A stretch of 64,000 nucleotides of DNA from Alphaproteobacteria bacterium (GTDB lineage: Bacteria; Pseudomonadota; Alphaproteobacteria; UBA7985). This document shows positions 48,138 through 63,446 of the stretch, in pieces. Within the stretch, counting starts at the first letter, position 1; each line of letters starts with the position of its first letter. Both the position numbers and the translations under genes were made by a program. Location: assembly GCA_964228455.1 (NCBI GenBank), contig CAXQZM010000071.1:13310-77309 (forward strand). Reading direction: 5' to 3'. The notes under the pieces were generated by a model. That model was not told where the DNA came from. It saw only the letters and a list, made by a program, of their open reading frames with translations, and did not search any database.

Positions 48138-49199
48138 ATGGCGGAAATTGAGCTCCGTAATTTGTCCAAGCGTTGGGGGTCCTTTGTCGGCGTCCACGAA
48201 TTTGACCTGACCATTGCTGACAAAGAATTCCTTGTTCTTCTTGGTCCGTCAGGTTGTGGCAAAACCACTACTATGAGAATGATTGCTGGTTTGGAGCCAA
48301 TCAGTGAAGGCGACATTGTTGTAGATGGGAGGCGCATCAACGACTTGGCCCCAAAAGATCGGGACGTTGCAATGGTGTTCCAGTCTTACGGTCTCTACCC
48401 TAATATGAGTGTCAGGGAAAACATTAGGTTCCCGTTGAAAGTCCGAAAGGTGCCTAAGAACGAGCATGAGGCGCGCGTCAACAAAGCCGCTGCTATGGTC
48501 GAATTGGAGCCGTTCATGGACCGTAAGCCAGCAGCACTTTCGGGAGGGCAACGCCAGCGCGTGGCACTCGCTCGCGCCATTGTGCGGGAGCCTAATGTGT
48601 TTCTAATGGATGAGCCTTTATCAAACCTTGATGCAAAGCTAAGGGTATCCACTCGCGCGCAGATTAAAAATCTCCAACACGAACTAAAAGTTACTACTAT
48701 TTACGTAACTCATGACCAGGTCGAAGCTATGACGTTAGCCGATCGTGTTGTAGTTATGAATAAAGGAAGAATTCAACAAGTAGGCACCCCGACTGAGATT
48801 TATGATAATCCCGCCAACACTTTCGTCGCCAGCTTCATTGGATCGCCGGCAATGAACCTAGTTCCGGGAAAGATGTCAAAAGGCGTTTTTGAGGCAGAAG
48901 GCCTAAAAGTTAAAGGGTTAAAGGGCAGTGATGGCAGCACGGTACTTGGATTTCGTGCGGAGGACGTAGCCCTCACGAGGAAAGCGGCTCAGTTAAAAGC
49001 TGCAGTTTACTCATTTGAATTATTGGGCGACGCGACCATGATCACAGTCAAGATTGGAAGCGGTTCGGACGCCGCAATGGTTAGCGTCAAGGCCCCTAAA
49101 GAATATCGAACGACCATTGGCGAGCAAGTCAATGTGTCGATCGATCCAAAGCTGTGTCATCTGTTCGATGCATCAACAGGGACCAGACAGGACAGTTGA
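48138..49199 (+). CDS. ABC transporter ATP-binding protein (CUT1 family, MalK/UgpC-like)
   Basis: Start at ATG 48138 (MAEIELRNLSKRWG). Walker A GPSGCGKTT, LSGGQRQRVALARA, Walker B FLMDEPLSNLD, C-terminal TOBE/regulatory domain. Confidence 0.85.
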   Translation: MAEIELRNLSKRWGSFVGVHEFDLTIADKEFLVLLGPSGCGKTTTMRMIAGLEPISEGDIVVDGRRINDLAPKDRDVAMVFQSYGLYPNMSVRENIRFPLKVRKVPKNEHEARVNKAAAMVELEPFMDRKPAALSGGQRQRVALARAIVREPNVFLMDEPLSNLDAKLRVSTRAQIKNLQHELKVTTIYVTHDQVEAMTLADRVVVMNKGRIQQVGTPTEIYDNPANTFVASFIGSPAMNLVPGKMSKGVFEAEGLKVKGLKGSDGSTVLGFRAEDVALTRKAAQLKAAVYSFELLGDATMITVKIGSGSDAAMVSVKAPKEYRTTIGEQVNVSIDPKLCHLFDASTGTRQDS

Positions 49200-49234: not shown

Positions 49235-50425
49235 ATGATCAAAAAACTAACTTTGGCAGCAAGCGTTTCAGCGCTAGCGACTTCCGCGGCTTTTGCCGGT
49301 GGCCATTGTAATGGCTCGGGCATCTCGTCTCTGTCTGCGGCGTTTCCTGCTGTAGAAGCTCTACAGGATCAAATGGAAGCTTGTGGCGCAACCACGGAGC
49401 GTGACCAAGAGCACAAAGATAAAATTAACCCGGCATTAGAGGCATCTCCAGCAGCATATAACGCTGTTCTAGGAGCAAACTCTACATTTACGGCCGCTAA
49501 TTCAGCTGGGCTCGTTGCCGCAATTACAGACGTCCCCGGCGTTTCTGATTTGCCAGTTTCTATGAAAGTGGAGCAGGATGGTGAAGTTGTGGCAATTGCT
49601 ACTATGGCGAATGCTCAGCACTTAATGGTGCGCCAAGACGTGCTTGATGCAACCGGCATGGCTATGCCAACAACATATGAAGAAGTCGTTGCCTTGGCCT
49701 CGAAAGCGCAAGAGATGGGCTTGATGGAGTATCCATTGACCGGCACGTATGCGGCTGGCTGGAACTTAGGTGAAGAGTTCATGAACATGTGGCAAGGTAC
49801 AGGCGAGCCAATGTTCGTTAATGGCACTGAATCTAACATTAACAATGCTGCAGGTATTGCTACTTTGGAGATGATGAAGGCCTTGACGGATCTCATGAAC
49901 CCCGAATTCTTAACTTTCAACTCAGACATCGTTCAGGCCCAGTTTGAACAGGGCGAGGCTGGCATAGCTAACCTATGGGGGACTCGTGCACAGAAGGTGA
50001 TTGATGGTGTTGGCGCTCTTGGTGCTGATGTTGTTATGGGCGGCGCGCCTACTTTCGGCGGAGGTTCAACTCCAGCGACTACTATTTGGTGGGATGGTTT
50101 CTTCTTCGCTGCAAATCAGTCTGATGAAGAGCTGGCAGCCGCTGTTGATACGGCAATTCATGCGGCAGCCTCTGTATTGAGTGTTGATGGAAATGCCGAA
50201 CTGGCAGTTTGGGTTATCGACGGATATGAGCCTACTCCAGCTGCGGCAGGCGTCTTCGCATCAGCCGCTGCGGGCGCAAATCCTTATCCAATGCTACCGC
50301 ATGTTGGTGCTATGCATACCGCTGCGGGCGCTGAGTTAGCGGATTTCTTATCTGGAAACGAGTCTGCAGCGCAGGCCTTAGCGGATATTGAAGCTGCCTA
50401 TAACGCAGCAATGGCAGAAAATTAA
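49235..50425 (+). CDS. ABC transporter substrate-binding protein (extracellular solute-binding family 1)
   Basis: AAGGAGGA RBS, then ATG 49235. Signal peptide (MIKKLTLAASVSALATSAAFA). SBP_bac_1-type length. Confidence 0.75.
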   Translation: MIKKLTLAASVSALATSAAFAGGHCNGSGISSLSAAFPAVEALQDQMEACGATTERDQEHKDKINPALEASPAAYNAVLGANSTFTAANSAGLVAAITDVPGVSDLPVSMKVEQDGEVVAIATMANAQHLMVRQDVLDATGMAMPTTYEEVVALASKAQEMGLMEYPLTGTYAAGWNLGEEFMNMWQGTGEPMFVNGTESNINNAAGIATLEMMKALTDLMNPEFLTFNSDIVQAQFEQGEAGIANLWGTRAQKVIDGVGALGADVVMGGAPTFGGGSTPATTIWWDGFFFAANQSDEELAAAVDTAIHAAASVLSVDGNAELAVWVIDGYEPTPAAAGVFASAAAGANPYPMLPHVGAMHTAAGAELADFLSGNESAAQALADIEAAYNAAMAEN

Positions 50426-50431
50426 TAATGC

Positions 50432-50470
50432 GGGGTGGCGGTTGTCGCCACCCCACTTTACCTTTTTTCT
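50432..50470 (+). terminator. Intra-operon stem-loop/attenuator downstream of the substrate-binding-protein gene
   Basis: GGGGTGGCG-GTTGT-CGCCACCCC perfect 9-bp stem followed by ...CCTTTTTTCTT. Typical position for a partial terminator that raises SBP:permease mRNA stoichiometry. Confidence 0.6.
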
Positions 50471-50529: not shown

Positions 50530-51534
50530 ATGCCACATCGTACGTTTTTATGGTTTGTCTTGCCCTCAGTGGCCACCATGGTGCTTTTTATTTTGTTGCC
50601 ATTGGTAAATGTAGCGTACCAGTCCTTTTTCTCCGAACCTACACCAATACAGAGGGTAGTAGAGGTTTGCTCAACTAACTTTTTTACTGGTGAGAAGACT
50701 TGCACGGAGTCTTTCACTTATGAGGAGGTAGAGGGCCCGAATATATTTCGGGGTTTAGACTTCATTTGTGGATACTCAGTGCTAGCATGTAAAGAGCTAT
50801 CCGAAGGTGCTAAACTAATGAATCTCCCGTTTTATCGGGCTTTGGCATTTACTTTATTTTATACATTTATCACCACGCCATTCATCATCGTTCTAGGGCT
50901 GATGATTGCCAGTCTTGTCAATAATCTGACGCGGTCAGTTCGCGGCCCTATCATCTTTGCAAGTCTATTACCCTTTATTGTTACCCCTCTCGTTGGCTCT
51001 TTGGTATTATTTTGGATGACCGGAAATAACGGCGGATTGCTCTACAGTTTAGTTAACGGGCTAATGTTTTGGACTGATGTTGATATTTCCCTCCGAGCTT
51101 CTGCAACCGCTGTCTGGGCGATGCTGGCCACTTATGGAGTTTGGCACGTAGCGCCGTTCGCGTTCATTGTGTTTTACGCTGGCCTGCAGACGGTTAGTCA
51201 GGACCAAATTGAAGCTGCAATGGTAGATGGTGCCAGTGTGTGGGAAAGGTTTCGACATGTTGTTGTTCCACATCTGATGCCCCTGATCACATTTGTACTT
51301 TTGATTCATATCATGGATGCATTTCGAGTGTTGGAGCCCATTGTTAGCTTTCAAGCGCAATCTAAAGCTCAGTCTTTGTCCACGTTGATTTACGAACACT
51401 TGGTTATTCAGCAAGAGAAGCGTTACGGAACAGCCGCTGCGACATCACTTCTGACCATTTTGATGGTATTCATCCTTCTTCTTCCCGTTTTGGTCAGAAC
51501 TTGGCGCGATTTTCGGGGGGATGGGCGATTATGA
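50530..51534 (+). CDS. ABC transporter permease (MalF/UgpA-like)
   Basis: 334 aa. Six TM helices with EAA-type loop (binding-protein-dependent transport signature). Confidence 0.8.
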   Translation: MPHRTFLWFVLPSVATMVLFILLPLVNVAYQSFFSEPTPIQRVVEVCSTNFFTGEKTCTESFTYEEVEGPNIFRGLDFICGYSVLACKELSEGAKLMNLPFYRALAFTLFYTFITTPFIIVLGLMIASLVNNLTRSVRGPIIFASLLPFIVTPLVGSLVLFWMTGNNGGLLYSLVNGLMFWTDVDISLRASATAVWAMLATYGVWHVAPFAFIVFYAGLQTVSQDQIEAAMVDGASVWERFRHVVVPHLMPLITFVLLIHIMDAFRVLEPIVSFQAQSKAQSLSTLIYEHLVIQQEKRYGTAAATSLLTILMVFILLLPVLVRTWRDFRGDGRL

Positions 51535-52697
51535 CTTCTAACAGACGCGCCGTTTCAGCAATACTCTATTTACTGGCCGGATTATGGGTTGTGATTGCTG
51601 CTTTTCCCTTCGCTTGGACTGTTTGGGGTAGCTTTAAATTTGAGACTGACTTTTTTGGCGCCTGGACGAAAAACATTTCAGGAGAAGACACCGGAAGAGA
51701 ATATGGGACATATTTTACCGCTGATGGATACGCCATCGCTTTCTCTTGGCCAGTAGAAACAGTTCCAACATTGGCAGAAGTAGAGCCATTTTTGGCAAGA
51801 CTTTCTACCGATCAGTTAGAGCACCCTTCCATTGCGCCATTATTTGACGCTATTTCAAATGAGACACGCCCATCGAATGGTGAATTACGCCAATTTAGTC
51901 GTTGGCTTAGATCGGAGGCGCGCCAGGGCCCCGACCGGTTTAGTGAAAATACTATGCAGTTTGTTACAGAGCTCGAAGAGGAAAGGGCTGCCAATGTTTC
52001 TGGTAAGGATTTTGGCCGAGCCGTTATAAACACTTTAGTTGTTACTCTCTCAGTTGTAGTTATTTCCTTAACGTTTGGAACATTAGGTGGGTATGCCTTA
52101 GCAAGGTCCACGGCGAAGTATGCTTTTTGGATACTTATAATAGCACTCGTTTTCCGAGCTATGCCGCACATTACTCTAGTATCTGGTTATATGGAGCCAC
52201 TATTTGCTACTCAAATTTCAGAGATAAAAATATTTGGGCTTACGGTGATAGAAGAGGGCACTCTCTGGGGAAGAACTTTTACTGCAGTCGTTGTTCTAGT
52301 AGCAATTAATCAGCCGTTCACAATTTGGATGATGCGGTCATTTTTTATGAATATTCCGCAGGAGCTTGACGAAAGTGCTTTAGTTGATGGGTGCAACCGG
52401 CTTCAAGGTTTCTGGCATGTTATTATGCCAGTAATGTGGCCCGGAGTGATAACAACAGGCCTCTTTAGTTTTCTGCTGGCTTACAACGATTTCACGGTTA
52501 CATCCGCGTTGCTGAGTCAAGAAAATACAACGATGATACCGCGTATCGCCGGTTTTCTTGGGTCCGCTCAATCTGATGGCGAGCAGATGGCTGCGGTCGC
52601 TGCAGTCGTATCCGCCACCGCGCCTCTTTTTGTTTTAATTATGGTGTTTCAGCGTCAGCTAGTTAGCGGCCTAACAGCGGGCGCCGTCAAGGGATAA
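51531..52697 (+). CDS. ABC transporter permease (MalG/UgpE-like) with extended periplasmic loop
   Basis: Start at ATG 51531 (MTSNRRAVSAILYLLAG). TM helices, a large loop between TM1 and TM2, C-terminal EAA motif region. Confidence 0.8.
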   Translation: MTSNRRAVSAILYLLAGLWVVIAAFPFAWTVWGSFKFETDFFGAWTKNISGEDTGREYGTYFTADGYAIAFSWPVETVPTLAEVEPFLARLSTDQLEHPSIAPLFDAISNETRPSNGELRQFSRWLRSEARQGPDRFSENTMQFVTELEEERAANVSGKDFGRAVINTLVVTLSVVVISLTFGTLGGYALARSTAKYAFWILIIALVFRAMPHITLVSGYMEPLFATQISEIKIFGLTVIEEGTLWGRTFTAVVVLVAINQPFTIWMMRSFFMNIPQELDESALVDGCNRLQGFWHVIMPVMWPGVITTGLFSFLLAYNDFTVTSALLSQENTTMIPRIAGFLGSAQSDGEQMAAVAAVVSATAPLFVLIMVFQRQLVSGLTAGAVKG

Positions 52698-52753: not shown

Positions 52754-54079
52754 ATGATACGACATTTAAAGACCGCCAAACCCGAGACCGAGCGAGCTGA
52801 AGATGACGCTGAGGTGCGCGAGGTAGTAGAAAAAACACTAGCCGACATTAAAGCCCGGGGAGATGAGGCGGTTCGCGAACTAGCGGAGAAATTTGATAAC
52901 TATTCTCCAAAAGCTTACTGTCTCTCAGCTGAGGAGATTGATGAGATTATCTCTAAGGTTTCCAAGGAAGACATGGCGGACATTGTTTTTGCGCAGGAGC
53001 AGGTGCGCAATTTTGCTCAAATTCAGCGAAACTCAATGAAAGATGTTGAGGTAGAGACACTCCCAGGCGTTATACTTGGCCATAAAAATATCCCAGTTCA
53101 GTCAGTTGGATGTTACGTCCCTGCGGGAAAATTCCCGATGGTGGCATCAGCCCATATGTCAGTTGCTACCGCTTCAGTAGCAGGCGTGCCTAGGATCGTT
53201 GCTTGCACTCCCCCCTTCAGCGGAGAGCCCAACCCAGCCGTTATTGCAGCCATGCACCTTGGAGGAGCTCATGAAATTTATGTTCTAGGAGGCATCCAAG
53301 CTGTTGGGGCAATGGCCTTGGGAACTGAGACCATAAAGCCGGTACATATGTTAGTTGGCCCAGGTAACGCCTTTGTCGCTGAAGCTAAACGTCAGCTTTT
53401 TGGTAAGGTCGGTATCGATTTATTTGCTGGCCCGACAGAAACTATGGTCATCGCGGATTCGTCTGTCGATGGTGAACTATGTGCAACTGATTTGCTTGGG
53501 CAGGCAGAGCATGGGTACAACTCCCCAGCGGTGCTGCTTACCAATTCAGAGAAGTTGGCAAATGAGACTATGGACTGGATAGAGATCCTACTTGGCAAAC
53601 TTCCCACAGCCGAAACAGCCAGGGTTTCTTGGGAAGACTACGGAGAAATCATCGTCTGTGATACATATGACGAGATGCTAGAAGTCGCCGACGATATTGC
53701 TTCTGAACATGTGCAGGTAATGACCGATCGGGATGATTGGTTTTTAGAAAACATGACTTGCTATGGCGCCTTGTTTTTGGGTCCTAGAACAAATGTATCA
53801 AACGGCGATAAAGTTATAGGTACGAATCACACTTTGCCGACCAAGAAAGCAGGTAGGTACACAGGTGGATTATGGGTGGGTAAATATCTCAAAACTCACT
53901 CATACCAGAAAATTACAACAGACGAAGCTGCAGCAGATATTGGCGCGTATTGTTCGCGCCTTTGCTTATTGGAGGGCTTTGTTGGTCATGCAGAGCAGGC
54001 CAATGTGCGTGTTCGCCGTTATGGGGGTGTGAATGTTCCATATGGCGAGGGCGCGCCTCGCCGAAAGGCTATCGGGTAA
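52754..54079 (+). CDS. Histidinol-dehydrogenase-family NAD-dependent dehydrogenase (HisD paralogue; specificity unknown)
   Basis: 441 aa. HisD fold blocks ([21 protein letters not shown], Zn-binding His/Asp/Glu region). The catabolic context suggests a paralogue (cf. HpsN-type alcohol-to-acid dehydrogenases) rather than histidine biosynthesis. Confidence 0.65.
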
Positions 54080-54140: not shown

Positions 54141-55184
54141 ATGACTAAAATTTCAGAGCACTGCAAATCGATGATTGCCCCCTTACGGCGAGCAATGGTC
54201 AATTTTGATGGGACAGTTGAGGCTAGCTTGCGCAAAGTTTTTCATAGAGATGCCCAAATTAGCTTTTGCCATCCGTTTGGTGATGTAATTGGATCTGACG
54301 CATTATACGAATTAGCCTACGCACCGCTTTTAGTTGCCATGCCTGACCTCGAGCGCCGGGATATGATCTTGCTTGCGGGACGTACCCCTGAGGGAAAGGA
54401 CTGGATTGGGATGATGGGGAACTACATGGGAACCTTCGTAGCTCCATTTTTGGGTATCCCGCCCACAGGTCATCTTGCGCACATGCGTTACCATGAGTTC
54501 TACCAGGTTGAAGAGGGCAAAATAATACAAGTCCAGGCAATATGGGACATTCCTGAATTAATGATGCAAGCAAACGCTTGGCCCATGGCTCGACAAATGG
54601 GGAAATTTCTAGCTACTCCTTCGCCCATGACACAGGATGGTTTGACAGCAAGCGGTGATGGAACCGTAGCCTTGGACCATGTTGTTGCGATGTTAACAGA
54701 TCTTTGCAAACATCCTGCCAATCCTGATCCAGCCGTGATGAAGCTTCAACACTACTGGCATTCTAGGAATAACTGGTATGGGCCAGCTGGTATAGGAACA
54801 AGTAGGGGTATTGATGGCTTTCGTCATTGGCATCAAATCCCATTCCTGCGCGCTATGCCTGACCGTAAGCTAGATGCGATGGGGGACCTTATGTCTCACT
54901 GGGTGGCAGAGGGAAACTATGTCTGTGAGACGGGCTGGCCGAACATGCGCCTAACCTTAACCAATGATGGTTGGATGGGCATCGCTCCTGCTGGGAAAGA
55001 GGTTACGCTCAGGTCGTTAGATTTTTGGCGAGTAGAGGATGGGAAGATCCGTGAAAACTGGGTCTTAGTTGACCTTCTTGATCTCTATCGACAGATCGAT
55101 GTCGACGTTCTTGCCCGACTTAATGAGTTCAATAAGGCTCGCAATTTATCACCAGTCAACATTCCCTCTGGGCTTGTTCAATGA
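54141..55184 (+). CDS. Tandem SnoaL-like/NTF2-like (ester-cyclase-like) double-domain protein, paralogue 1
   Basis: 347 aa. Two repeats of the SnoaL polyketide-cyclase-like motif (GTFVAPFLGIPPTGH...EGKIIQVQAIWD and GWMGIAPAGKEVTLRSLDFWRVEDGKIRENWVLVDLLDLYRQI). Confidence 0.6.
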   Translation: MTKISEHCKSMIAPLRRAMVNFDGTVEASLRKVFHRDAQISFCHPFGDVIGSDALYELAYAPLLVAMPDLERRDMILLAGRTPEGKDWIGMMGNYMGTFVAPFLGIPPTGHLAHMRYHEFYQVEEGKIIQVQAIWDIPELMMQANAWPMARQMGKFLATPSPMTQDGLTASGDGTVALDHVVAMLTDLCKHPANPDPAVMKLQHYWHSRNNWYGPAGIGTSRGIDGFRHWHQIPFLRAMPDRKLDAMGDLMSHWVAEGNYVCETGWPNMRLTLTNDGWMGIAPAGKEVTLRSLDFWRVEDGKIRENWVLVDLLDLYRQIDVDVLARLNEFNKARNLSPVNIPSGLVQ

Positions 55185-55277
55185 AGTACTCAATTGGCAG
55201 AAAAGTATGGGTCTCCAATGAAAGATATTAAACAATGACTTGGTTAAAAAATGCGACCAGATCTTTAGAAGAGCGGC

Positions 55278-56300
55278 ATGGTGAGTAATACCCGAGTAAC
55301 ATCAGCAGAGGTTGCCCAACACGCTGGTGTTTCTCAATCAGCTGTGAGCCGTGTCTTCACTCCTGGAGCGTCAGCATCAAAGAAAACAGCTGAAAAAGTC
55401 AGAAAAGCGGCTGCTGATTTGGGGTACCGTCCTAACGTTCTTGCGCGCGCAATGGTATCTGGGAAAAGCCGGATTATTGGCCTAGTGGTCGCGTACCTCG
55501 ACAATCAATTTTACCCTGAGGCGCTCGAAAAACTATCTAATGAGCTTCAAAAACGCGGATATCATGTCCTTATCTTTATGGCTGATAATGCAGTTGGTAA
55601 TGTGGATAGCGTGCTCGAGGAGATACTTGATTATCAAGTTGAGGGCATAATCGCTGCATCTGTTGCCATGTCGTCTGATTTATCTGAGCGATGTCGAGCA
55701 GCGGACGTCCCGATGGTTCTATTCAACCGAAATCAAGATGATCCAAACATGTCATCTGTGACTTCCGACAATCACTCGGGCGGTCGTAAAGTTGCAGAGT
55801 TTTTGCTAGCAGCCGGGCACAAAAAAATTGGGTATATTGCAGGTTGGAAGGGCGCCTCAACACAACGTGATCGCGAAGCAGGTTTTATATCGGGTTTAGC
55901 AGAGGCGGGTGTAGCTCTTCACTCACGGGGCGAGGGTGATTTTCAGATGGAGAAAGCGGCTGAGGCAACGCGCCTTATGTTTGCTTATGATCCACCAGAG
56001 GCTGTCTTCGTTGCAAATGATCATATGGCTCTAGCCGTCTTAGATACGTTGCGGTTTGAGCTTGGACTCCGGGTTCCGGAAGACGTTTCGGTTGTTGGAT
56101 ACGACGACGTGCCTGCTGCTGGATGGCCAGCGTATGATCTCACAACAGTGCGCCAGCCCGTCAATCGGATGGTCACAAATACCGTCGATATTCTTCTTGA
56201 TCAAGTTGAAGGAAGCGCGAGTAAATTGAGGCGTATCGCAATTGCTGGACCATTTATTAAGCGTGGATCCGCTCGAGTTCCGGATGGTTGGGCTTCATGA
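55278..56300 (+). CDS. LacI-family transcriptional regulator
   Basis: 340 aa. N-terminal HTH (VTSAEVAQHAGVSQSAVSRVF), periplasmic-binding-protein-like sugar-binding core. Confidence 0.9.
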   Translation: MVSNTRVTSAEVAQHAGVSQSAVSRVFTPGASASKKTAEKVRKAAADLGYRPNVLARAMVSGKSRIIGLVVAYLDNQFYPEALEKLSNELQKRGYHVLIFMADNAVGNVDSVLEEILDYQVEGIIAASVAMSSDLSERCRAADVPMVLFNRNQDDPNMSSVTSDNHSGGRKVAEFLLAAGHKKIGYIAGWKGASTQRDREAGFISGLAEAGVALHSRGEGDFQMEKAAEATRLMFAYDPPEAVFVANDHMALAVLDTLRFELGLRVPEDVSVVGYDDVPAAGWPAYDLTTVRQPVNRMVTNTVDILLDQVEGSASKLRRIAIAGPFIKRGSARVPDGWAS

Positions 56301-57331
56301 AATCAATTCATGATTTGAACCGAAACAAAATAGTTGGTCTGCGCTCGGCAACATATAATTTTGAAGAGTCAACAGTTCGGAGGGAGTTGAAAAAGGTTTC
56401 GAAACCAGACGCTATTTTTAGAATGGCATTTCCAATTGAGGAGACCGTTGGTGCTGACTCATACTATGAAGCAGCATATGCGCCTCTTTTTAAAGCTATT
56501 CCAGATCTCGAGCGGCGCGATTGGATCGTGATGTCCGGCCAGACTGATAAAGGTTATGACTGGGTTGGTTGTGGGGGCTTTTATACAGGGACGTTTGTAA
56601 ACCCTTGGTTTGATATACCAGCCACGGGCCACATGGTTCATATGCGGTTTCATGAGTTTTATCGATTTGAGGACGGAAAAATTTCGGAAGTGCAGGCACT
56701 CTGGGACATCCCGGAAGTCATGCTTCAAGCTAATGCGTGGCCTATGGCACCAGCGCTAGGTAAGGAGTGGCATATACCAGGCCCAGCGACGAATGATGGT
56801 GTTCGGCTGGCTCACGACAGAGTTAACGGCGCACGCGCCTGCGAAATCGTTATTGATATGTTGGATCATCTGAAAAAACACCCTACTCAAGGTGGTCCAG
56901 AAGTAATGAAGCCAGAGCAATTCTGGCATCCCCGTATGTCCTGGTATGGCCCCTCAGGAATTGGGACAGGCAGGGGCTTTGCGGGTTTTAGAAACTGGCA
57001 CCAAATACCATTTTTAAACGCGATGCCTGATCGAGGACTTGAGCGGGACAAAATCACTTATCATTTCTTTGGTGATGGCCCTTATTGTGCTGTGACGGGC
57101 TGGCCCAACATGATCCAAACAATAACTCACGATGGTTGGATGGGGATACCGCCACTGAATAAAAGAGTGACTATGAAATCACTCGATTTTTGGCGTTTAG
57201 AGGGTGACCTTATCCGAGAAAATTGGGTAATGGTCGATTTACTCGACTTATATGATCAAATTGGTGTCGACGTATTAGGCCGAATGCGCGAATTTAATAA
57301 GGCGCGCAACCCTATCAATTTATCTGGCTAA
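56288..57331 (+). CDS. Tandem SnoaL-like/NTF2-like double-domain protein, paralogue 2
   Basis: 347 aa. Collinear with the 54141..55184 product (shared AYAPL...PDLERRD, HMRxHEFY.FEDGKI, LDFWR.E.D.IRENWVMVDLLDLYDQIGVDVL.R..EFNKARN). Confidence 0.6.
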   Translation: MGFMKSIHDLNRNKIVGLRSATYNFEESTVRRELKKVSKPDAIFRMAFPIEETVGADSYYEAAYAPLFKAIPDLERRDWIVMSGQTDKGYDWVGCGGFYTGTFVNPWFDIPATGHMVHMRFHEFYRFEDGKISEVQALWDIPEVMLQANAWPMAPALGKEWHIPGPATNDGVRLAHDRVNGARACEIVIDMLDHLKKHPTQGGPEVMKPEQFWHPRMSWYGPSGIGTGRGFAGFRNWHQIPFLNAMPDRGLERDKITYHFFGDGPYCAVTGWPNMIQTITHDGWMGIPPLNKRVTMKSLDFWRLEGDLIRENWVMVDLLDLYDQIGVDVLGRMREFNKARNPINLSG

Positions 57332-57343
57332 GGAGGCCACCAA

Positions 57344-58108
57344 ATGACTTTACCTCAAACTCCCTCTTTTTCGTTAAGTGGTAAACGAGCGTTAGTCGCA
57401 GGAGCGTCATCTGGAATTGGTCTGGCCTGCGCTGCAGCTTTATCACAAGCAGGAGCTCATGTTACGGTTGCGGCTCGGCGAGTAGATAAGCTTTCTGAGT
57501 TGGTAGATGATTTAAAGGCAAATGGCGCCTCAGCTGAGGCGCTTGCACTAGATGTAAGTGATACTGAGGCAACCCAGGCAGCGATCGACCAAGCCGAGCC
57601 ATTTGATGTGTTAGTTAATTCTGCCGGTTTAGCGCATCATGGCCCCGCCTTGGATACAATACCCCATAAATTTGATGAGGTTGTAGCCATTAACCTTAAG
57701 GGAGCGTTTTTTCTTACCCGTGCGGTTGCAGCCAAGTTAATGGACGCGGGCAAATCAGGCTCACTCATAAATATTTCCTCACAAATGGCATACGTAGGTG
57801 GCATAGAACGATCTGTCTATTGTGCTACCAAGCATGCGGTTGAAGGTTTTACAAAAGCAGTTGCTATAGAATGGGGTCCTAAAGGAATCCGGGTTAACAC
57901 CATCTGTCCGACATTCATTAAGACAGCATTAACTGCATCAACTTTTGCTAATCCTGAACGGAAAGCATGGATTGAAGAAAAAATAAAACTCGGGCGTATT
58001 GGCGAGGTGGAAGATATTATGGGCCCCGTTACATTTTTAGCCTCTGATGCCTCTGCTCTAATAACAGGAACGGCTATCCTTGTGGATGGCGGTTGGACAG
58101 CTGATTAA
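57344..58108 (+). CDS. SDR-family short-chain dehydrogenase/reductase
   Basis: 254 aa. TGASSGIG cofactor motif, NSAG, catalytic YxxxK (YCATKHAV). Confidence 0.85.
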   Translation: MTLPQTPSFSLSGKRALVAGASSGIGLACAAALSQAGAHVTVAARRVDKLSELVDDLKANGASAEALALDVSDTEATQAAIDQAEPFDVLVNSAGLAHHGPALDTIPHKFDEVVAINLKGAFFLTRAVAAKLMDAGKSGSLINISSQMAYVGGIERSVYCATKHAVEGFTKAVAIEWGPKGIRVNTICPTFIKTALTASTFANPERKAWIEEKIKLGRIGEVEDIMGPVTFLASDASALITGTAILVDGGWTAD

Positions 58109-58118
58109 GGAATATTTC

Positions 58119-59111
58119 ATGAGCTATACTAACAAGCCATCGATGAAGGGTTTTGACCCTATCTACAAAGATTTTCCGGATTATATTATTGGGATTACCA
58201 AGAGAATCTGGGAGGATCGTGATTTAGCATCACTCCATCACTTGTATTCGAAAGACATCCCAGTTCGTTCGCCCGGGTCACTGGTTATTGGAAATGAACC
58301 CGTAATTGCAGCTACGCAAGCAACGCTGGCGGAATTTCCAGATCGCACCCTTTATGGAGAGGATGTTATTTGGTCTGGGTCGCCTGAGGTTGGCATGCTT
58401 TCATCACATCGAATTATTTCCACGGCCACCCACGCGGTCGAAGGGGTTTATGGCAAACCTACTGGCAAAAAGCTGACTTATCGAATCATAGCGGATTGCC
58501 ACGCTAAAAATAACACCATTGACGATGAGTGGTTAATACGTGACCAAGGTGCAATTGTTAAGCAATTGGGGTGGGCGGCGAAGGATTATGCCGCTGACCT
58601 AATTAGTCGCGAAGGAGGCATCGAGACCTGCATTCGACCGTTTACACCAGAAATTGATGTTGAAGGCCCCTACCAAGGCTGCGGAAATGATAATGAGTGG
58701 GGTCATAAATATGCCGATATTCTCACGAGGATTATGGGAGGGTCGTATGACGTTGTCGCGCATGAATATGATCGCGCTGTCCATTGCGAATATGCCGGAG
58801 GCATTACAGCCCATTCTCATAAAGCCGTAGATCAGTTTTGGATGCCATTAAGATCAGCGTTTCCAAACGCCGAATTTAAAGTTGAGCATCAAATCGGTCG
58901 GGATGATCCTATGATGCCGCCACGAGCCGCAATCCGTTGGTCCTTGAAAGGAAAACATGAGGGCTGGGGTGGTTTTGGCGCGCCCACAGGAGCAGAGGTT
59001 TATGTTATGGGAGCATCTCACGCTGAATTTGGTCCCTGGGGACTAAGGCGAGAGTACACACTTTACGATGATACGGCGATTTGGAAGCAGATTTTGATCA
59101 GTCAGGGGTAG
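58119..59111 (+). CDS. Tandem SnoaL-like/NTF2-like double-domain protein, divergent paralogue 3
   Basis: Start at ATG 58119 (MSYTNKPS). Two ester-cyclase-like repeats (GKPTGKKLTYRIIADCHAKNNTIDDEWLIRDQ and GAPTGAEVYVMGASHAEFGPWGLRREYTLYDDTAIW). Confidence 0.55.
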   Translation: MSYTNKPSMKGFDPIYKDFPDYIIGITKRIWEDRDLASLHHLYSKDIPVRSPGSLVIGNEPVIAATQATLAEFPDRTLYGEDVIWSGSPEVGMLSSHRIISTATHAVEGVYGKPTGKKLTYRIIADCHAKNNTIDDEWLIRDQGAIVKQLGWAAKDYAADLISREGGIETCIRPFTPEIDVEGPYQGCGNDNEWGHKYADILTRIMGGSYDVVAHEYDRAVHCEYAGGITAHSHKAVDQFWMPLRSAFPNAEFKVEHQIGRDDPMMPPRAAIRWSLKGKHEGWGGFGAPTGAEVYVMGASHAEFGPWGLRREYTLYDDTAIWKQILISQG

Positions 59112-59168: not shown

Positions 59169-60134
59169 ATGGAGAGTAATGCACCGAAGATTGTAAGATA
59201 TGGCGAGCTAGTGCCGTGCAAGACAGCGTTTATTGACGCACACACCCCTGGATCAGACCAAAAGGAAAACTTTACGATCATTGGTGGTGGTGTCTCGGAA
59301 AGTCCAGATCAGCACATTCATATAAAGGCGACGCCAGGCTACAATATTGGAGCTGCAGGCCAGCCGCCAAAGTGTCGCAATTCACTGCACTCTCACCGAA
59401 CAGCAGAAGTTTTTTTTGTATTGTCTGGCAGGTGGCGTTTTTTTTGGGGGCGATACGGGACAGCGGGCGAAGTTACCTTAGAGGAAGGTGACATCTTCAA
59501 TATTCCTACAGGCATATTTCGAGGTTTTGAGAACATTGGTACCGACTATGGTATGATTATGGCTATCCTAGGCGGTGATGATGCGGGTGGCGGCGTACAA
59601 TGGGCACCACAAGTCATTCAAGACGCTGCTGATCATGGATTAATTCTTGGCGAAAATGGCGCTTTGTATGATACCAAAAAAGGCGCGCGCTTGCCTGATG
59701 GTGTAGGGCCTATGCCCTTATTGTCAGAAGATGTTCTGAAGAGAATGCCAGAGACTCCCATTGCCGAAATCTTACCTTTTATTGGGCGTTATTGGGATAT
59801 CATGGCAATGGCTGACCAGGCGCCAGCTAAGGTTATAGGGCCCAGTGCAATGATTAGAGATCGGCCAGGGTTTGAAGTTGAGCTGTTGAATCACAAAACC
59901 CCAGCTCCCGGGCCATATCGCGTTGACGTGCAAGAGACACTGATGGTTATGCGAGGGCATTGGTCATTGAAGTGGCGAGGAGGGGATATTCGTCTTGCTC
60001 CAGGCGACACGGTGGCGGTTCCAGCGGGCTTGGAGCATGAACTGGGTCCCGCGATGACTGGCGAGGCTTCTGTTTACAAGATTATAGGTACTGAAGATCC
60101 AGCTGGACCTACAGGGCTACTATTGGAGGCTTAG
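59169..60134 (+). CDS. Bicupin (two cupin domains) protein, possible ring-cleaving dioxygenase/isomerase
   Basis: ~320 aa. Two cupin barrels (first with HSHRTAEVFFVLSG..., second with ...TVAVPAGLEHELG). His/Glu metal-ligand-like positions. Confidence 0.55.
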   Translation: MESNAPKIVRYGELVPCKTAFIDAHTPGSDQKENFTIIGGGVSESPDQHIHIKATPGYNIGAAGQPPKCRNSLHSHRTAEVFFVLSGRWRFFWGRYGTAGEVTLEEGDIFNIPTGIFRGFENIGTDYGMIMAILGGDDAGGGVQWAPQVIQDAADHGLILGENGALYDTKKGARLPDGVGPMPLLSEDVLKRMPETPIAEILPFIGRYWDIMAMADQAPAKVIGPSAMIRDRPGFEVELLNHKTPAPGPYRVDVQETLMVMRGHWSLKWRGGDIRLAPGDTVAVPAGLEHELGPAMTGEASVYKIIGTEDPAGPTGLLLEA

Positions 60135-61259
60135 ATGAGTTTGCAAGTCACACACGTCGGATCATTACCGCGCTCGCAACAAGTTGTAGATATGATTTTT
60201 GCGCGTGAGAAAGAACAACCATACGACGTAGAGAAGTTTGATGCATGTATGAGGGGTGCTGTTTCTGCTACCGTTAAGAAACAAATAGAGGCAGGGGTGA
60301 GTTGGGTTTCAGATGGAGAAACCTCTAAGATCTCTTATGCTACTTATGTGAAGGATCGCTACACCGGGTTCTCCGGTGACAGCCCACGAAATGCACCCGA
60401 AGATCTTAAAATGTTTCCTGGGTTTCTTCAGCGCCAGGCGGATAGTGGCGGAACTCCAACCTATGCTCGGCCTATGTGCACAGGAGAGGTCAAGGCAAAA
60501 AACACCGGTGATTTAGAGAGAGACATTAGCAACTTGAAGGCCGCTATGGCTGAACATGGCGCGCCAAGAGGTTTCATGAATTCCGCGTCGCCTGGTGTGA
60601 TTTCACTCTTCTTAGCCAATGACTATTATTCATCGCGCGAAAAATATTTGTATGCGTTATCCGACGTTATGAAAGCAGAGTATGAAACTATAGTTGCTAG
60701 TGGTTTAGATCTCCAGCTTGATTGTCCAGATTTGGCCCTATCCCGTCACATGTTATTTCAAGACCTATCTGACGAAGAGTTTTTAAAGATCGCTGAAATG
60801 CATGTTGAGGCTTTAAATGCAGCACTGATAAATATTGATCCGGCTAGTGTCCGCATTCATATTTGTTGGGGAAATTATGAGGGTCCGCACTGCTGTGATA
60901 TGCCGATGGATACAGTATTTAACACTTTGATGAGAGTGAAAGCTTCCCATGTTTTGTTTGAGACGGCGAATCCACGTCACGGACATGAATGGGCTACCTT
61001 CCGCGATCGAAAGGCCGACATCCCAGAGGATAAAATACTCGTGCCTGGGGTGGTAGATACAACAACTAATTTTATTGAGCATCCAGATTTGGTGGCAGAG
61101 CGTTTGTGCCGTTTTATCGATATTGTTGGGGAGGATCGAGTTGTGGCTGGCTCTGATTGTGGGTTTGGGACATTTGCTGGTTTTGGCGCGATCGATCCTG
61201 ATATAGCCTATGCTAAGCTCAAGTCATTGAGTGAAGGTGCCAAGCGTGCTGTCGCCTGA
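60135..61259 (+). CDS. Cobalamin-independent methionine-synthase-like (MetE C-terminal/UroD-like) zinc-dependent alkyl(methyl)transferase
   Basis: 374 aa. MetE catalytic-domain-like blocks: N-terminal THVGSLPRS, zinc-ligand-like IHICWGNYE (His/Cys/Glu) and C-terminal GSDCGFG. Confidence 0.65.
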   Translation: MSLQVTHVGSLPRSQQVVDMIFAREKEQPYDVEKFDACMRGAVSATVKKQIEAGVSWVSDGETSKISYATYVKDRYTGFSGDSPRNAPEDLKMFPGFLQRQADSGGTPTYARPMCTGEVKAKNTGDLERDISNLKAAMAEHGAPRGFMNSASPGVISLFLANDYYSSREKYLYALSDVMKAEYETIVASGLDLQLDCPDLALSRHMLFQDLSDEEFLKIAEMHVEALNAALINIDPASVRIHICWGNYEGPHCCDMPMDTVFNTLMRVKASHVLFETANPRHGHEWATFRDRKADIPEDKILVPGVVDTTTNFIEHPDLVAERLCRFIDIVGEDRVVAGSDCGFGTFAGFGAIDPDIAYAKLKSLSEGAKRAVA

Positions 61260-61950
61260 TCTGCTTCGAGTTCTTAAATCCGTCGACACTCCGACGGTTT
61301 GTAATGCAATTGAAGTTGCCCAAGGAAGACGTGGTTTCAAAAATTTTACTCGCAAAACGATGTTAGCCTCTGATGCTAATGCTCCAGCAATGGTTGGGTA
61401 TGCGTGCACGGCTCAGATAGCAGCACTAGAGCCTCCAAAGGAATCACCCGATACGATAAAAAAAAGACGGATGGATTATTACAGAGCTATGGCCGCCGCA
61501 GTGAAATCTGGTCCAACTATATGCGTAGTTGAAGATGTTGATGATGAGAAAGCTGTAGGAGCCTTTTGGGGTGAAGTGAATACTACTGTCCATAAGGGGC
61601 TTGGTTTAGTTGGAACGATAACGAACGGGCTGATGCGGGATTTGGGCGATATGGCTAATGATTACCCTGTCCTTGCGGGCGGGATTGGACCAAGCCATAT
61701 GTATGTTCATATCCGCAGCGTAAGCCAGCCGGTAAAAATCTATGGCATGGCGGTGAACCAAGGGGACCTTTTACATGCTGATTGTCATGGAGCGCTTGTA
61801 ATTCCAGATGAAGTGCTGCCAAATCTTAATTATGCGGTAAAAAAACTCTTAGAAACAGAGCGACTTATTTTAGAGCCTGCTCGCCAGCCTGACTTCAATA
61901 TTGACGAATTTGAAAAAGCTTGGGCGGCATTTGAAGCCGCTCGCACTTAA
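61231..61950 (+). CDS. RraA-family protein (HMG/CHA-aldolase / 4-hydroxy-2-oxoacid aldolase-like; 'RNase E inhibitor' family)
   Basis: 239 aa. RraA-like motifs (TPTVCNAIEV, GLGLVGTITNGLMRDLGDM, HADCHGALVIP). Start uncertain (overlaps upstream gene end; a GTG start is possible). Confidence 0.6.
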   Translation: MKVPSVLSPDLLRVLKSVDTPTVCNAIEVAQGRRGFKNFTRKTMLASDANAPAMVGYACTAQIAALEPPKESPDTIKKRRMDYYRAMAAAVKSGPTICVVEDVDDEKAVGAFWGEVNTTVHKGLGLVGTITNGLMRDLGDMANDYPVLAGGIGPSHMYVHIRSVSQPVKIYGMAVNQGDLLHADCHGALVIPDEVLPNLNYAVKKLLETERLILEPARQPDFNIDEFEKAWAAFEAART

Positions 61951-62609: not shown

Positions 62610-63446
62610 ATGCTCGACATATTTATGCAAGACTGGATTTGGTTTGTCATAATCATGCTTATTGCAGCGATCGTGGCTGGTTTTATGGCGGGGCTATTTG
62701 GTATTGGCGGGGGCGCTGTCATGGTGCCTGTATTTTCCGAGGTCTACGTATGGGTTGGCACAGAGCCGTCTCTGGCGCAATTTGTAGCGGTAGGGACATC
62801 TCTAGCTATCATCATCCCCACTTCAATTAGATCAGCACAAACCCATTTTTCTGCCGGAAATTTAGATCATAAAGTTTTACGCAGTTACTTTTGGTTCATT
62901 CCCTTAGGCGTGGTTTTGGGGCTTGTGTTCGCTAATTTAGACTGGGTGAAAGCAAGTGATTTTCTAACATCGATCTTTGGTATAATGGCTTTGCTGATAT
63001 CCGCTTATATGCTTTTTGAGGCTAAGGAATTTAGTCTGCGATCGACTGGTCCAAGGGTATATTTATCCCGCGTGGGGGGGGTTGTCATTGGCTTCACATC
63101 TTTGCTGATGGGAATTGGCGGTGGAGTGGTGAACAATATTTTTATGATGCTTCAAGGGTCTTCCATTAAGGTTGCTATTGGGACTTCAGCGGCGGTTGGT
63201 ATTCTGATATCCGTCCCAGGTGCTTTAGGGTTTTTAGTTATTGGGTGGGGGATTGAGGGCCTGCCTCCGTTTACTTACGGATTTCTTAACGTTTTCACTA
63301 TGTTAGTTGTAATACCCATAACTGTATTGATGGCGCCACTTGGTGCGAAGGTTACTCAGATGTTGCCCGATGCTTTAACCTCTCGACTATTTGGATTTTT
63401 TCTTCTTGCTGCTGGTATGCGAATGCTTTGGAAGGTTTTAGTTTAA
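62610..63446 (+). CDS. TauE/SafE-family (DUF81) sulfite/organosulfonate exporter-like membrane protein
   Basis: 278 aa. Two 4-TM repeats each with a GxGGG motif (AGLFGIGGGAVMVP, LLMGIGGGVVNN). Confidence 0.75.
   Translation: MLDIFMQDWIWFVIIMLIAAIVAGFMAGLFGIGGGAVMVPVFSEVYVWVGTEPSLAQFVAVGTSLAIIIPTSIRSAQTHFSAGNLDHKVLRSYFWFIPLGVVLGLVFANLDWVKASDFLTSIFGIMALLISAYMLFEAKEFSLRSTGPRVYLSRVGGVVIGFTSLLMGIGGGVVNNIFMMLQGSSIKVAIGTSAAVGILISVPGALGFLVIGWGIEGLPPFTYGFLNVFTMLVVIPITVLMAPLGAKVTQMLPDALTSRLFGFFLLAAGMRMLWKVLV

Follow-up and report, generated by a model that had tools for sequence, protein, structure and literature searches.

Several enzymes of the NTF2 fold work without a cofactor, among them ketosteroid isomerase, scytalone dehydratase, the 7-alpha-dehydratase BaiE, LinA, the SnoaL aldolase, limonene epoxide hydrolase and the diarylpropane lyase LdpA. 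The known members of the SnoaL family (SnoaL, AknH, IdmH, AclR/SnoaL2 and ChaU) are single-domain oligomeric proteins from the biosynthesis of aromatic polyketides in actinomycetes, and Lsd19 and MonBI-MonBII are the only solved cases in which two NTF2 cones work as a pair. Here I analyse a stretch of 64,000 nucleotides from an alphaproteobacterium (GenBank assembly GCA_964228455.1, contig CAXQZM010000071.1, positions 13,310 to 77,309; hereafter the window), in which three genes, called A, B and C below, each encode a fused protein of two NTF2 domains. The trio is typical of an operon that is widely conserved in several hundred marine and freshwater species, and is no local oddity. I also argue that these tandem (pseudo-dimeric) proteins are, with a probability that I put slightly above even, cofactor-independent acid/base enzymes that act on carbonyl intermediates made by an HpsN-like dehydrogenase and a short-chain dehydrogenase/reductase (SDR).

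A preliminary description of the window had recognised three paralogous double-domain genes of the SnoaL type at this locus. It had placed A at 54141..55184 (347 amino acids) and C at 58119..59111 (330 amino acids), as does the listing of open reading frames (ORFs) of the window, and B at 56288..57331. However, B measures 347 amino acids from the TTG at 56288 or 344 from the ATG at 56297, and the latter, which overlaps the stop codon of the preceding LacI gene in an ATGA, is more probably the start. BLASTP aligns A and B collinearly from end to end (187 of 345 residues identical, 54%, E 6e-134), which confirms that these two are paralogues over their whole length. The Pfam model SnoaL (PF07366, gathering cutoff 28.4 bits) matches A with 86, B with 79.8 and C with 53 bits, and in each protein two stretches lie above the gathering score. 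AlphaFold2 (AF2) models built on family alignments contain two alpha+beta cones both in A (pLDDT 82.5, pTM 0.86) and in C (pLDDT 92, pTM 0.89), as the preliminary description, which had proposed structure prediction as a check, expected; a cone was defined as a curved sheet with three helices packed against it, once per domain, and was read from the secondary structure and the confidence of the models.

In Foldseek searches of the PDB, the nearest single-domain structures to the individual domains are IdmH, AclR, SnoaL2, ChaU, TsrD and 3kkg, at template modelling (TM) scores of ~0.7-0.8. With the full-length models Lsd19 and MonBI-MonBII come out on top (E 1e-9 to 1e-11), although the superposition on them is poor (TM 0.30-0.43, root-mean-square deviation 15-17 A, 10-16% identity). 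Because the SnoaL matches, the AF2 cones and the Foldseek results agree, the two-domain NTF2 design is accepted as real for all three genes. All six domains match the SnoaL profile and superpose on single-domain members of that family. However, A, B and C differ from the known members in being fused chains, in their location, as their types occur in Proteobacteria and one haloarchaeon within catabolic operons that are linked to an importer, and in sequence, the similarity to polyketide enzymes being marginal (E 1e-5 to 0.1). With Lsd19 and MonBI-MonBII they share two NTF2 domains per functional unit, but the packing of the domains in the models of A and C is different, and these two systems belong to the limonene-epoxide-hydrolase branch in a polyketide synthase (PKS) context, whereas the operon in the window has no epoxidase.

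The motif PTG-K/H...DGKI...W had been described for each domain. Read from the translations, it is clear in the N-terminal domains of A and B and partial in the C-terminal domain of A (PAGK...DGKI...W) and the N-terminal domain of C (PTGK...NNTI...W), but degenerate in the C-terminal domains of B (PLNK...EGDLI) and C (PTGA...GPWGL). SnoaL itself is absent among the PDB sequence matches of the three proteins. Alignments to AclR and IdmH place its 'vEHWd' stretch opposite 'DDEWL' in the N-terminal domain of C, and an alignment by eye only places it opposite 'RENWV' in the C-terminal domain of A. I take the catalytic Asp of SnoaL, with a neighbouring His, to lie in this '..EHWD..' region on the late beta-strands; its counterparts in the three proteins are tentative. 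The invariant polar residues of 149 sequences of the A-type and of the related D-type introduced below cluster in the C-terminal domain (R291, D294, R297, E305, N306 and D311), and those of 67 C-type sequences in the N-terminal domain (D18, Y22, R34, Y43, D75, R76, S95, S96, H97, C127, E137, R141 and D142). One cone therefore appears to hold the main active site, the C-terminal one in A and B and the N-terminal one in C, and the other would be mainly structural.

The kinship of C with A and B is of another order than that between A and B. The preliminary description had given C the same design in a more divergent form, and it indeed has two SnoaL stretches and two modelled cones. However, BLASTP of C against A and B yields only short, non-significant matches of 37-86 residues (E 0.004-0.012), and a profile-profile comparison with hhalign covers just 51 columns (probability 3.7%), so that collinear full-length homology is detectable between A and B only and the claim of three paralogues is not borne out for C. 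Profiles of the single domains, made from the same 149 and 67 sequences, are nearest to each other within each family (N- and C-terminal domains of the A-type E 6e-17, of the C-type E 1.7e-12). Between the families, the best pairs are non-collinear (C-terminal domain of A with N-terminal domain of C, E 1.6e-8; N-terminal domain of A with C-terminal domain of C, E 2e-6) and the collinear ones are weaker (both N-terminal domains, E 2e-4; both C-terminal domains, E 1e-5). As the domain profiles are nearer within than between the families, the simplest reading that they suggest is that the two tandem architectures arose from separate internal duplications. The lopsided conservation of the C-terminal cone in the A/D-type and the N-terminal cone in the C-type matches the non-collinear pairing. 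Alternatively, a single ancient tandem may have undergone concerted evolution.

Clustering all tandem-NTF2 ORFs of ~90 related loci at 45% identity gives an A-type subfamily of 84 members, to which both A and B of the window belong, a D-type subfamily in 46 loci (29-37% identical to A, usually divergently transcribed upstream of the transporter), and two C-type subfamilies of 43 and 23 members. Within the A-type, window A falls in a lineage, A1, whose members in many genera are 67-79% identical to it and sit directly after the HisD-like (HpsN-like) gene in most loci. Window B falls in a second lineage, A2, with 65-69% identity to proteins of Ruegeria, Tateyamaria, Tritonibacter and Sulfitobacter and 75-76% to two proteins from metagenome-assembled genomes (MAGs). 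Since B is nearer to its orthologues in other genera (65-76%), and A to its own (67-79%), than the two are to each other (54%), the recent local duplication that had been proposed for this locus is ruled out. On the contigs with the nearest relatives of B and C, the module B-SDR-C-cupin-MetE-RraA stands alone, with no HisD-like or A gene nearby, and the nearest relatives of A keep the order HisD-A-SDR-LacI-C-cupin-MetE-(alpha/beta hydrolase)-RraA. This gives the operon in the window the appearance of a mosaic, with [ABC-HisD-A-LacI] as one part and [B-SDR-C-cupin-MetE-RraA] as the other. It differs from its relatives in the extra A-type copy, B, and in a rearranged order, with LacI between A and B-SDR.

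Fused genes of this kind in triplicate had been thought uncommon, which they are not. A scan of one genome per species gave at least 585 confirmed matches to A, in Rhodobacterales, Hyphomonadaceae, Sphingomonadales, Rhizobiales and several gammaproteobacterial groups, and a protein database holds >5,000 A/B-type and >7,000 C-type clusters at 90% identity (>7,300 homologues of C). The commonest combination in a locus is A-, D- and C-type, and some loci have four or five such genes. Among 57 loci of at least 15 kb, all have an A-type gene, 53 a C-type gene, 51 the bicupin, 50 each the SDR and the HisD-like gene, 48 LacI, 45 the MetE-like gene and 33 the RraA-like gene, and ATP-binding cassette (ABC) components are present in ~31-34. 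Sphingomonads and hyphomonads have a TonB-dependent receptor and a sodium:solute symporter in place of the ABC system. Four tandem-NTF2-type genes are found in the cluster of Octadecabacter arcticus, and five NTF2 genes, one of them single-domain, in that of Ruegeria conchae; the Marinovum cluster also includes a single-domain gene. Cultured strains that carry the cluster are Marinovum algicola DG898 (pMaD9), Octadecabacter arcticus 238 (pOA238_160), Ruegeria conchae, Ruegeria sp. THAF33, Tritonibacter mobilis, Planktotalea frisia and Paracoccus alcaliphilus. In a reduced version on the Vibrio pelagius plasmid AP025505, four genes of the tandem-NTF2 kind are accompanied by a CUT1 ABC transporter and soxBDAG-purU, and the plasmid CP031313 of the haloarchaeon Halobellus limi carries four tandem and one single NTF2 gene with a MetE-like gene, an aldehyde dehydrogenase (ALDH) and a metallo-beta-lactamase hydrolase; both versions are without HisD-like, cupin and RraA genes.

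Certain pairings are constant, namely HisD-like/A-type/SDR (an SDR gene follows the A/B-type gene in nearly all loci), C-type/cupin and D-type/lactonase. Recurring extras are a PcaD-like alpha/beta hydrolase (49 loci), which normally lies between the MetE-like and RraA genes (compared in L001, L086, L087 and L091), and an L-fuconolactonase-like protein of the Amidohydro_2 family (27 loci); five loci have an ALDH. In one locus, of a Ruegeria, an SMP-30 lactonase replaces Amidohydro_2; the two lactonases have different folds and occupy the same position beside the D-type gene. Similarly, an RraA-like gene is found in 39 loci and an HpcH/GarL-type aldolase in 12, with both in 1 only, and this mutual displacement supports a 4-hydroxy-2-oxoacid aldolase step. 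Both swaps are non-orthologous displacements that help to define the steps of the pathway. None of PKS, kinase, coenzyme A (CoA) ligase and canonical sugar-acid dehydratase genes recurs among the neighbours across the related loci. In addition, a class I S-adenosylmethionine (SAM)-dependent methyltransferase gene lies between the cupin and MetE-like genes of Ruegeria sp. THAF33 (L099, 19000-19602), and in three loci (L091 7098-8579, L055 and L057) a gene for a choline-dehydrogenase-like glucose-methanol-choline (GMC) oxidoreductase closely precedes the HisD-like gene.

The operon has the outline of an oxidative, non-phosphorylative pathway in which an aldol cleavage finally yields pyruvate, and for which I propose the following order of steps. 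The CUT1 ABC system would import a sugar- or polyol-like compound under the control of LacI, the SDR would oxidise it, and the HpsN-like enzyme would turn a terminal R-CH(OH)-CH2OH or -CHO group into an acid. A lactonase would, in most genomes, open a lactone, after which the NTF2 proteins and the bicupin could rearrange or dehydrate the intermediate in lieu of a canonical sugar-acid dehydratase, which is missing, and an aldolase of the RraA or HpcH type would cleave the product into pyruvate and an aldehyde. The MetE-like zinc enzyme would probably remove a methyl (alkyl) group or transfer it to a homocysteine-type thiol. The NTF2 proteins, together with the bicupin, are the candidates for dehydration and isomerisation because a canonical dehydratase is missing and because NTF2 folds perform such carbonyl chemistry; their activity would most likely be that of an enolising isomerase, a beta-hydroxy-ketone dehydratase or a beta-eliminase, or consist in the handling of lactones. 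In this they would resemble ketosteroid isomerase, scytalone dehydratase, BaiE and LdpA, with cofactor-free enolisation, dehydration or retro-aldol cleavage beside a carbonyl made by a dehydrogenase. However, those enzymes act on steroids or aromatics, and the likeness is one of the working model. That several NTF2 enzymes act on related intermediates of one pathway, as the preliminary description had suggested, is plausible.

A number of observations weigh against this interpretation. The operon in the window is without the PcaD-like hydrolase, the lactonase and the D-type gene of most relatives, and neither a D-type paralogue nor a lactonase nor an alpha/beta hydrolase has a match anywhere in the 64 kb, so that the scheme may be incomplete in this operon or completed elsewhere in the genome. 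The presence of a MetE-like protein within a sugar-type pathway is unexplained, and the literature searches found no paper on this cluster. Finally, NTF2 folds also act as non-catalytic binding modules. The tandem proteins could accordingly be ligand-binding, chaperone-like or regulatory modules, as many NTF2-fold proteins are binders and one domain of each tandem protein has few invariant polar residues. I consider this unlikely, given that there are 3-5 paralogues per operon with orthologues 65-80% identical between genera, that many charged and aromatic residues are invariant, that several of the genes share an overlap with a dehydrogenase gene, which recalls translational coupling, and that nothing else in the pathway could account for a dehydration or isomerisation.

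Other explanations assign a different chemistry to the NTF2 proteins. The annotation pipeline PGAP names them 'ester cyclase', with the Gene Ontology term polyketide metabolic process, and they would then close rings in polyketide or other natural-product metabolism, as could be read from the SnoaL matches and from IdmH, AclR, SnoaL2, ChaU and TsrD being the closest single-domain structures. However, ~70 loci contain no PKS, nonribosomal peptide synthetase, terpene synthase or tailoring genes, an importer, a LacI repressor, dehydrogenases and an aldolase form the context instead, and with the sequence similarity to polyketide enzymes as marginal as it is, such a role is hardly credible. The constant SDR gene after the A/B-type gene, and the hydroxylases AclR, SnoaL2 and KstA15 among the best structural matches (TM ~0.8), recall the two-component hydroxylase SnoaW/SnoaL2, in which case the SDR would reduce a quinone- or reductone-like substrate that reacts with O2, with the NTF2 protein steering protonation. 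This is improbable to a high degree, as it needs a redox-active aromatic substrate, whereas the transporter, regulator, lactonase and aldolase point to an aliphatic, sugar-like one and the SDR itself resembles sugar and sugar-acid dehydrogenases. A similarly small chance is given to epoxide-opening hydrolases or cyclases like Lsd19 and MonB, with two cones for two sequential openings, which comes near to a suggestion in the preliminary description. Lsd19 and MonBI-MonBII do lead the full-length Foldseek matches, and the MetE family includes the epoxyalkane:coenzyme M transferase, but the poor superposition implies a different mutual arrangement of the domains, and the cluster has no recurring gene for an epoxidase or a monooxygenase.

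The HpsN-like enzyme is one of the two dehydrogenases that would make the carbonyl intermediates. Its closest solved relative is HpsN (8v35; 403 bits, E 1e-119), the best true HisD scoring 251 bits (E 1e-73). In HpsN, the last residue of the motif G-R-Y-[AS]-H is a histidine that binds the sulfonate (PMC11382572). The site reads G-K-F-P-M in the window, G-K-[FY]-P-[ML] in 69 cluster orthologues and G-S-A-P-L in HisD, and the window enzyme retains the catalytic Glu-His and Asp-Lys and the zinc ligands. It has the look of an uncharacterised class within the HisD/HpsN family, with a third kind of specificity. A true histidinol dehydrogenase is ruled out by the greater nearness to HpsN, the different motif and the catabolic context. 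The substrate 2,3-dihydroxypropane-1-sulfonate (DHPS), or another sulfonate, was considered in view of the HpsN-like enzyme, the weakly SmoF-like solute-binding protein (SBP) and the TauE gene downstream, and was rejected in its simple form, as the sulfonate-binding His is replaced family-wide and a sulfolyase is missing. Going by the template of HpsN and HisD, one expects a fragment X-CH2-CH(OH or NH2)-CH2OH (or -CHO), with an X other than a sulfonate.

The operon shares with HpsN-HpsO-HpsP the HpsN-like dehydrogenase beside an SDR of the PF13561 family, as HpsO is, though with Met or Leu in place of the sulfonate-binding His. The steps of the sulfoglycolytic Entner-Doudoroff (sulfo-ED) pathway and of the non-phosphorylative oxidative routes for the deoxy-sugars L-fucose and L-rhamnose are also reminiscent of it, with a sugar dehydrogenase, a lactonase, an aldolase to pyruvate and the oxidation of a 2-hydroxy-aldehyde. 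However, a sulfolyase, a sulfoquinovosidase and a canonical dehydratase are absent from the operon, and none of these pathways has anything that corresponds to its NTF2, bicupin and MetE-like proteins. The operon thus resembles these systems in outline, but the NTF2 proteins are components of neither HpsNOP nor sulfo-ED.

Clues to the substrate come from the neighbourhood of the cluster in other genomes. The genes dmdA, dmdB and SBP56 lie directly downstream of it in Marinovum algicola pMaD9 (L097, 18782-25023), and in a Sulfitobacter MAG the cluster is adjoined by an SBP56 gene with a conserved ORF of 214-223 amino acids, a pair that Phaeobacter piscinae has beside a distant NTF2/ABC/LacI cluster. 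Genes like DmdA (349-366 bits, under the cutoff of 410) are present in loci of Novosphingobium/Erythrobacteraceae and of Planktomarina, soxBDAG-purU adjoins the cluster of Vibrio pelagius, and soxB that of Amylibacter. At least five independent genomes have genes related to methanethiol or to the demethylation of dimethylsulfoniopropionate (DMSP) directly beside a tandem-NTF2 cluster (further positions in Table 1), and the window itself has no homologues of MtoX, Sox or DmdA. Because such methyl- and sulfur-handling genes recur, among them the MetE-like gene in 45 of 57 loci and the SAM-dependent methyltransferase gene of Ruegeria sp. THAF33, they suggest a methylated, possibly sulfur-containing, sugar-like substrate; alternatively, the neighbourhood could be mere co-location on genomic islands.

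A more specific proposal, which I offer tentatively and regard as possible though doubtful, is a non-phosphorylative pathway, widespread but so far undescribed, for a sugar- or polyol-like metabolite that is methylated, bears sulfur or both. In it, two independently evolved families of tandem-NTF2 enzymes would replace the canonical sugar-acid dehydratases and isomerases, the new HpsN/HisD subtype would oxidise a 2-hydroxy-aldehyde or diol fragment, and the MetE-like enzyme would methylate homocysteine. Candidate substrates would then be a 6-substituted 6-deoxyhexose, a methylthio-sugar, or a sulfonium or onium polyol of algal or SAM-derived origin. If true, the transfer of a methyl group to homocysteine by the MetE-like enzyme would tie this pathway to DMSP, methanethiol and one-carbon metabolism, a link that the neighbouring genes named above support. 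From chemistry alone, mycosporine/gadusol, cyclitols, opines, pyridoxine, betaine-lipid headgroups and methylthioribose were also considered, and none of them is claimed.

Between 48138 and 61950, the operon in the window comprises 13 genes that all run in one direction and either overlap or leave short gaps (Table 1). The SBP has weak PDB sequence matches to the sugar SBP 5iai (E 2e-6) and to SmoF, a binder of sulfoquinovosyl-glycerol (E 7e-6). A strong GC-rich hairpin with a stem of 10-11 bp directly follows its gene, before the permease genes, and may act within the operon as an mRNA stabiliser or attenuator that favours expression of the SBP. The best NCBIfam matches of the LacI-family repressor are of the RbsR, CytR and PurR types, all under cutoff, and the SDR matches KduD with 215 bits, again under cutoff. 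In the bicupin, the H-x-H-x3-E of the N-terminal cupin is kept in 60 orthologues, and the C-terminal cupin is degenerate and poorly conserved. Invariant in 55 orthologues of the MetE-like protein are GSxPR, SDGE, LQLDxPDL, HICWGN, LFE and DCGF, which I take, from the structures of MetE, to be the zinc (H-x-C, E, C) and homocysteine-binding (Ser/Glu/Asp) motifs. The RraA-like protein is a probable class II 4-hydroxy-2-oxoacid aldolase; like the cupin and MetE-like proteins, it has remote matches only in PDB sequence searches. Just downstream of the operon lies a gene for a TauE/SafE-family anion exporter, which is found only in contigs of the source species and is not kept elsewhere.

Table 1. 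Genes of the operon and adjoining features in the window, with related positions in other loci
Feature	Position	Strand	Basis
ABC transporter ATPase (MalK/UgpC-like)	48138..49199	+	gene call; Pfam ABC_tran/TOBE_2 in identical contigs
CUT1-type extracellular solute-binding protein	49235..50425	+	Pfam SBP_bac_1
GC-rich hairpin	50430..50456		
two ABC permeases	50530..51534 and 51531..52697	+	Pfam BPD_transp_1
HisD/HpsN-family 4-electron alcohol dehydrogenase, apparent third subtype	52754..54079	+	Pfam Histidinol_dh 444 bits
tandem-NTF2 protein A (A1 lineage, A-type)	54141..55184	+	two SnoaL stretches, two AF2 cones
LacI-family repressor	55281..56300	+	Pfam LacI and Peripla_BP
tandem-NTF2 protein B (A2 lineage, A-type), more probable start	56297..57331	+	54% identity to A; ATG overlaps LacI stop
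SDR oxidoreductase (like KduD, gluconate 5-dehydrogenase and sugar 1-dehydrogenase)	57344..58108	+	Pfam adh_short_C2
tandem-NTF2 protein C (C-type family)	58119..59111	+	two SnoaL stretches, AF2 pLDDT 92
bicupin	59169..60134	+	Pfam Cupin_2
MetE-like zinc enzyme (cobalamin-independent methionine-synthase catalytic domain)	60135..61259	+	Pfam Meth_synt_2; PDB 3rpd E 1e-4
RraA-like protein	61246..61950	+	Pfam RraA-like
TauE/SafE-family anion exporter	62610..63446		
DMSP/methanethiol-related neighbours, other loci	L021 16915-18987; L095 10759-12822; L056 17563-18639; L011/L012 658-1809		

In this study I show that a trio of tandem-NTF2 genes belongs to a common operon, and the universal annotation of the A-, B- and C-types as 'ester cyclase' is almost certainly wrong in this context. 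The two tandem-NTF2 architectures, in which the conserved cone is oppositely placed, apparently arose independently, and this would amount to a convergent evolution of pseudo-dimers. Nearly every enzyme of the operon is a divergent member of its own family, and the interest rests in this conserved, uncharacterised operon. Its NTF2 proteins make up thousands of sequence clusters, from roseobacters, Planktomarina, Halieaceae, Hyphomonadaceae, sphingomonads and other heterotrophs that abound in aquatic habitats. Identification of the substrate would give a function to a large block of genes of known fold and unknown function, and could expose a new route for the turnover of dissolved organic carbon, and possibly of sulfur or methyl groups.

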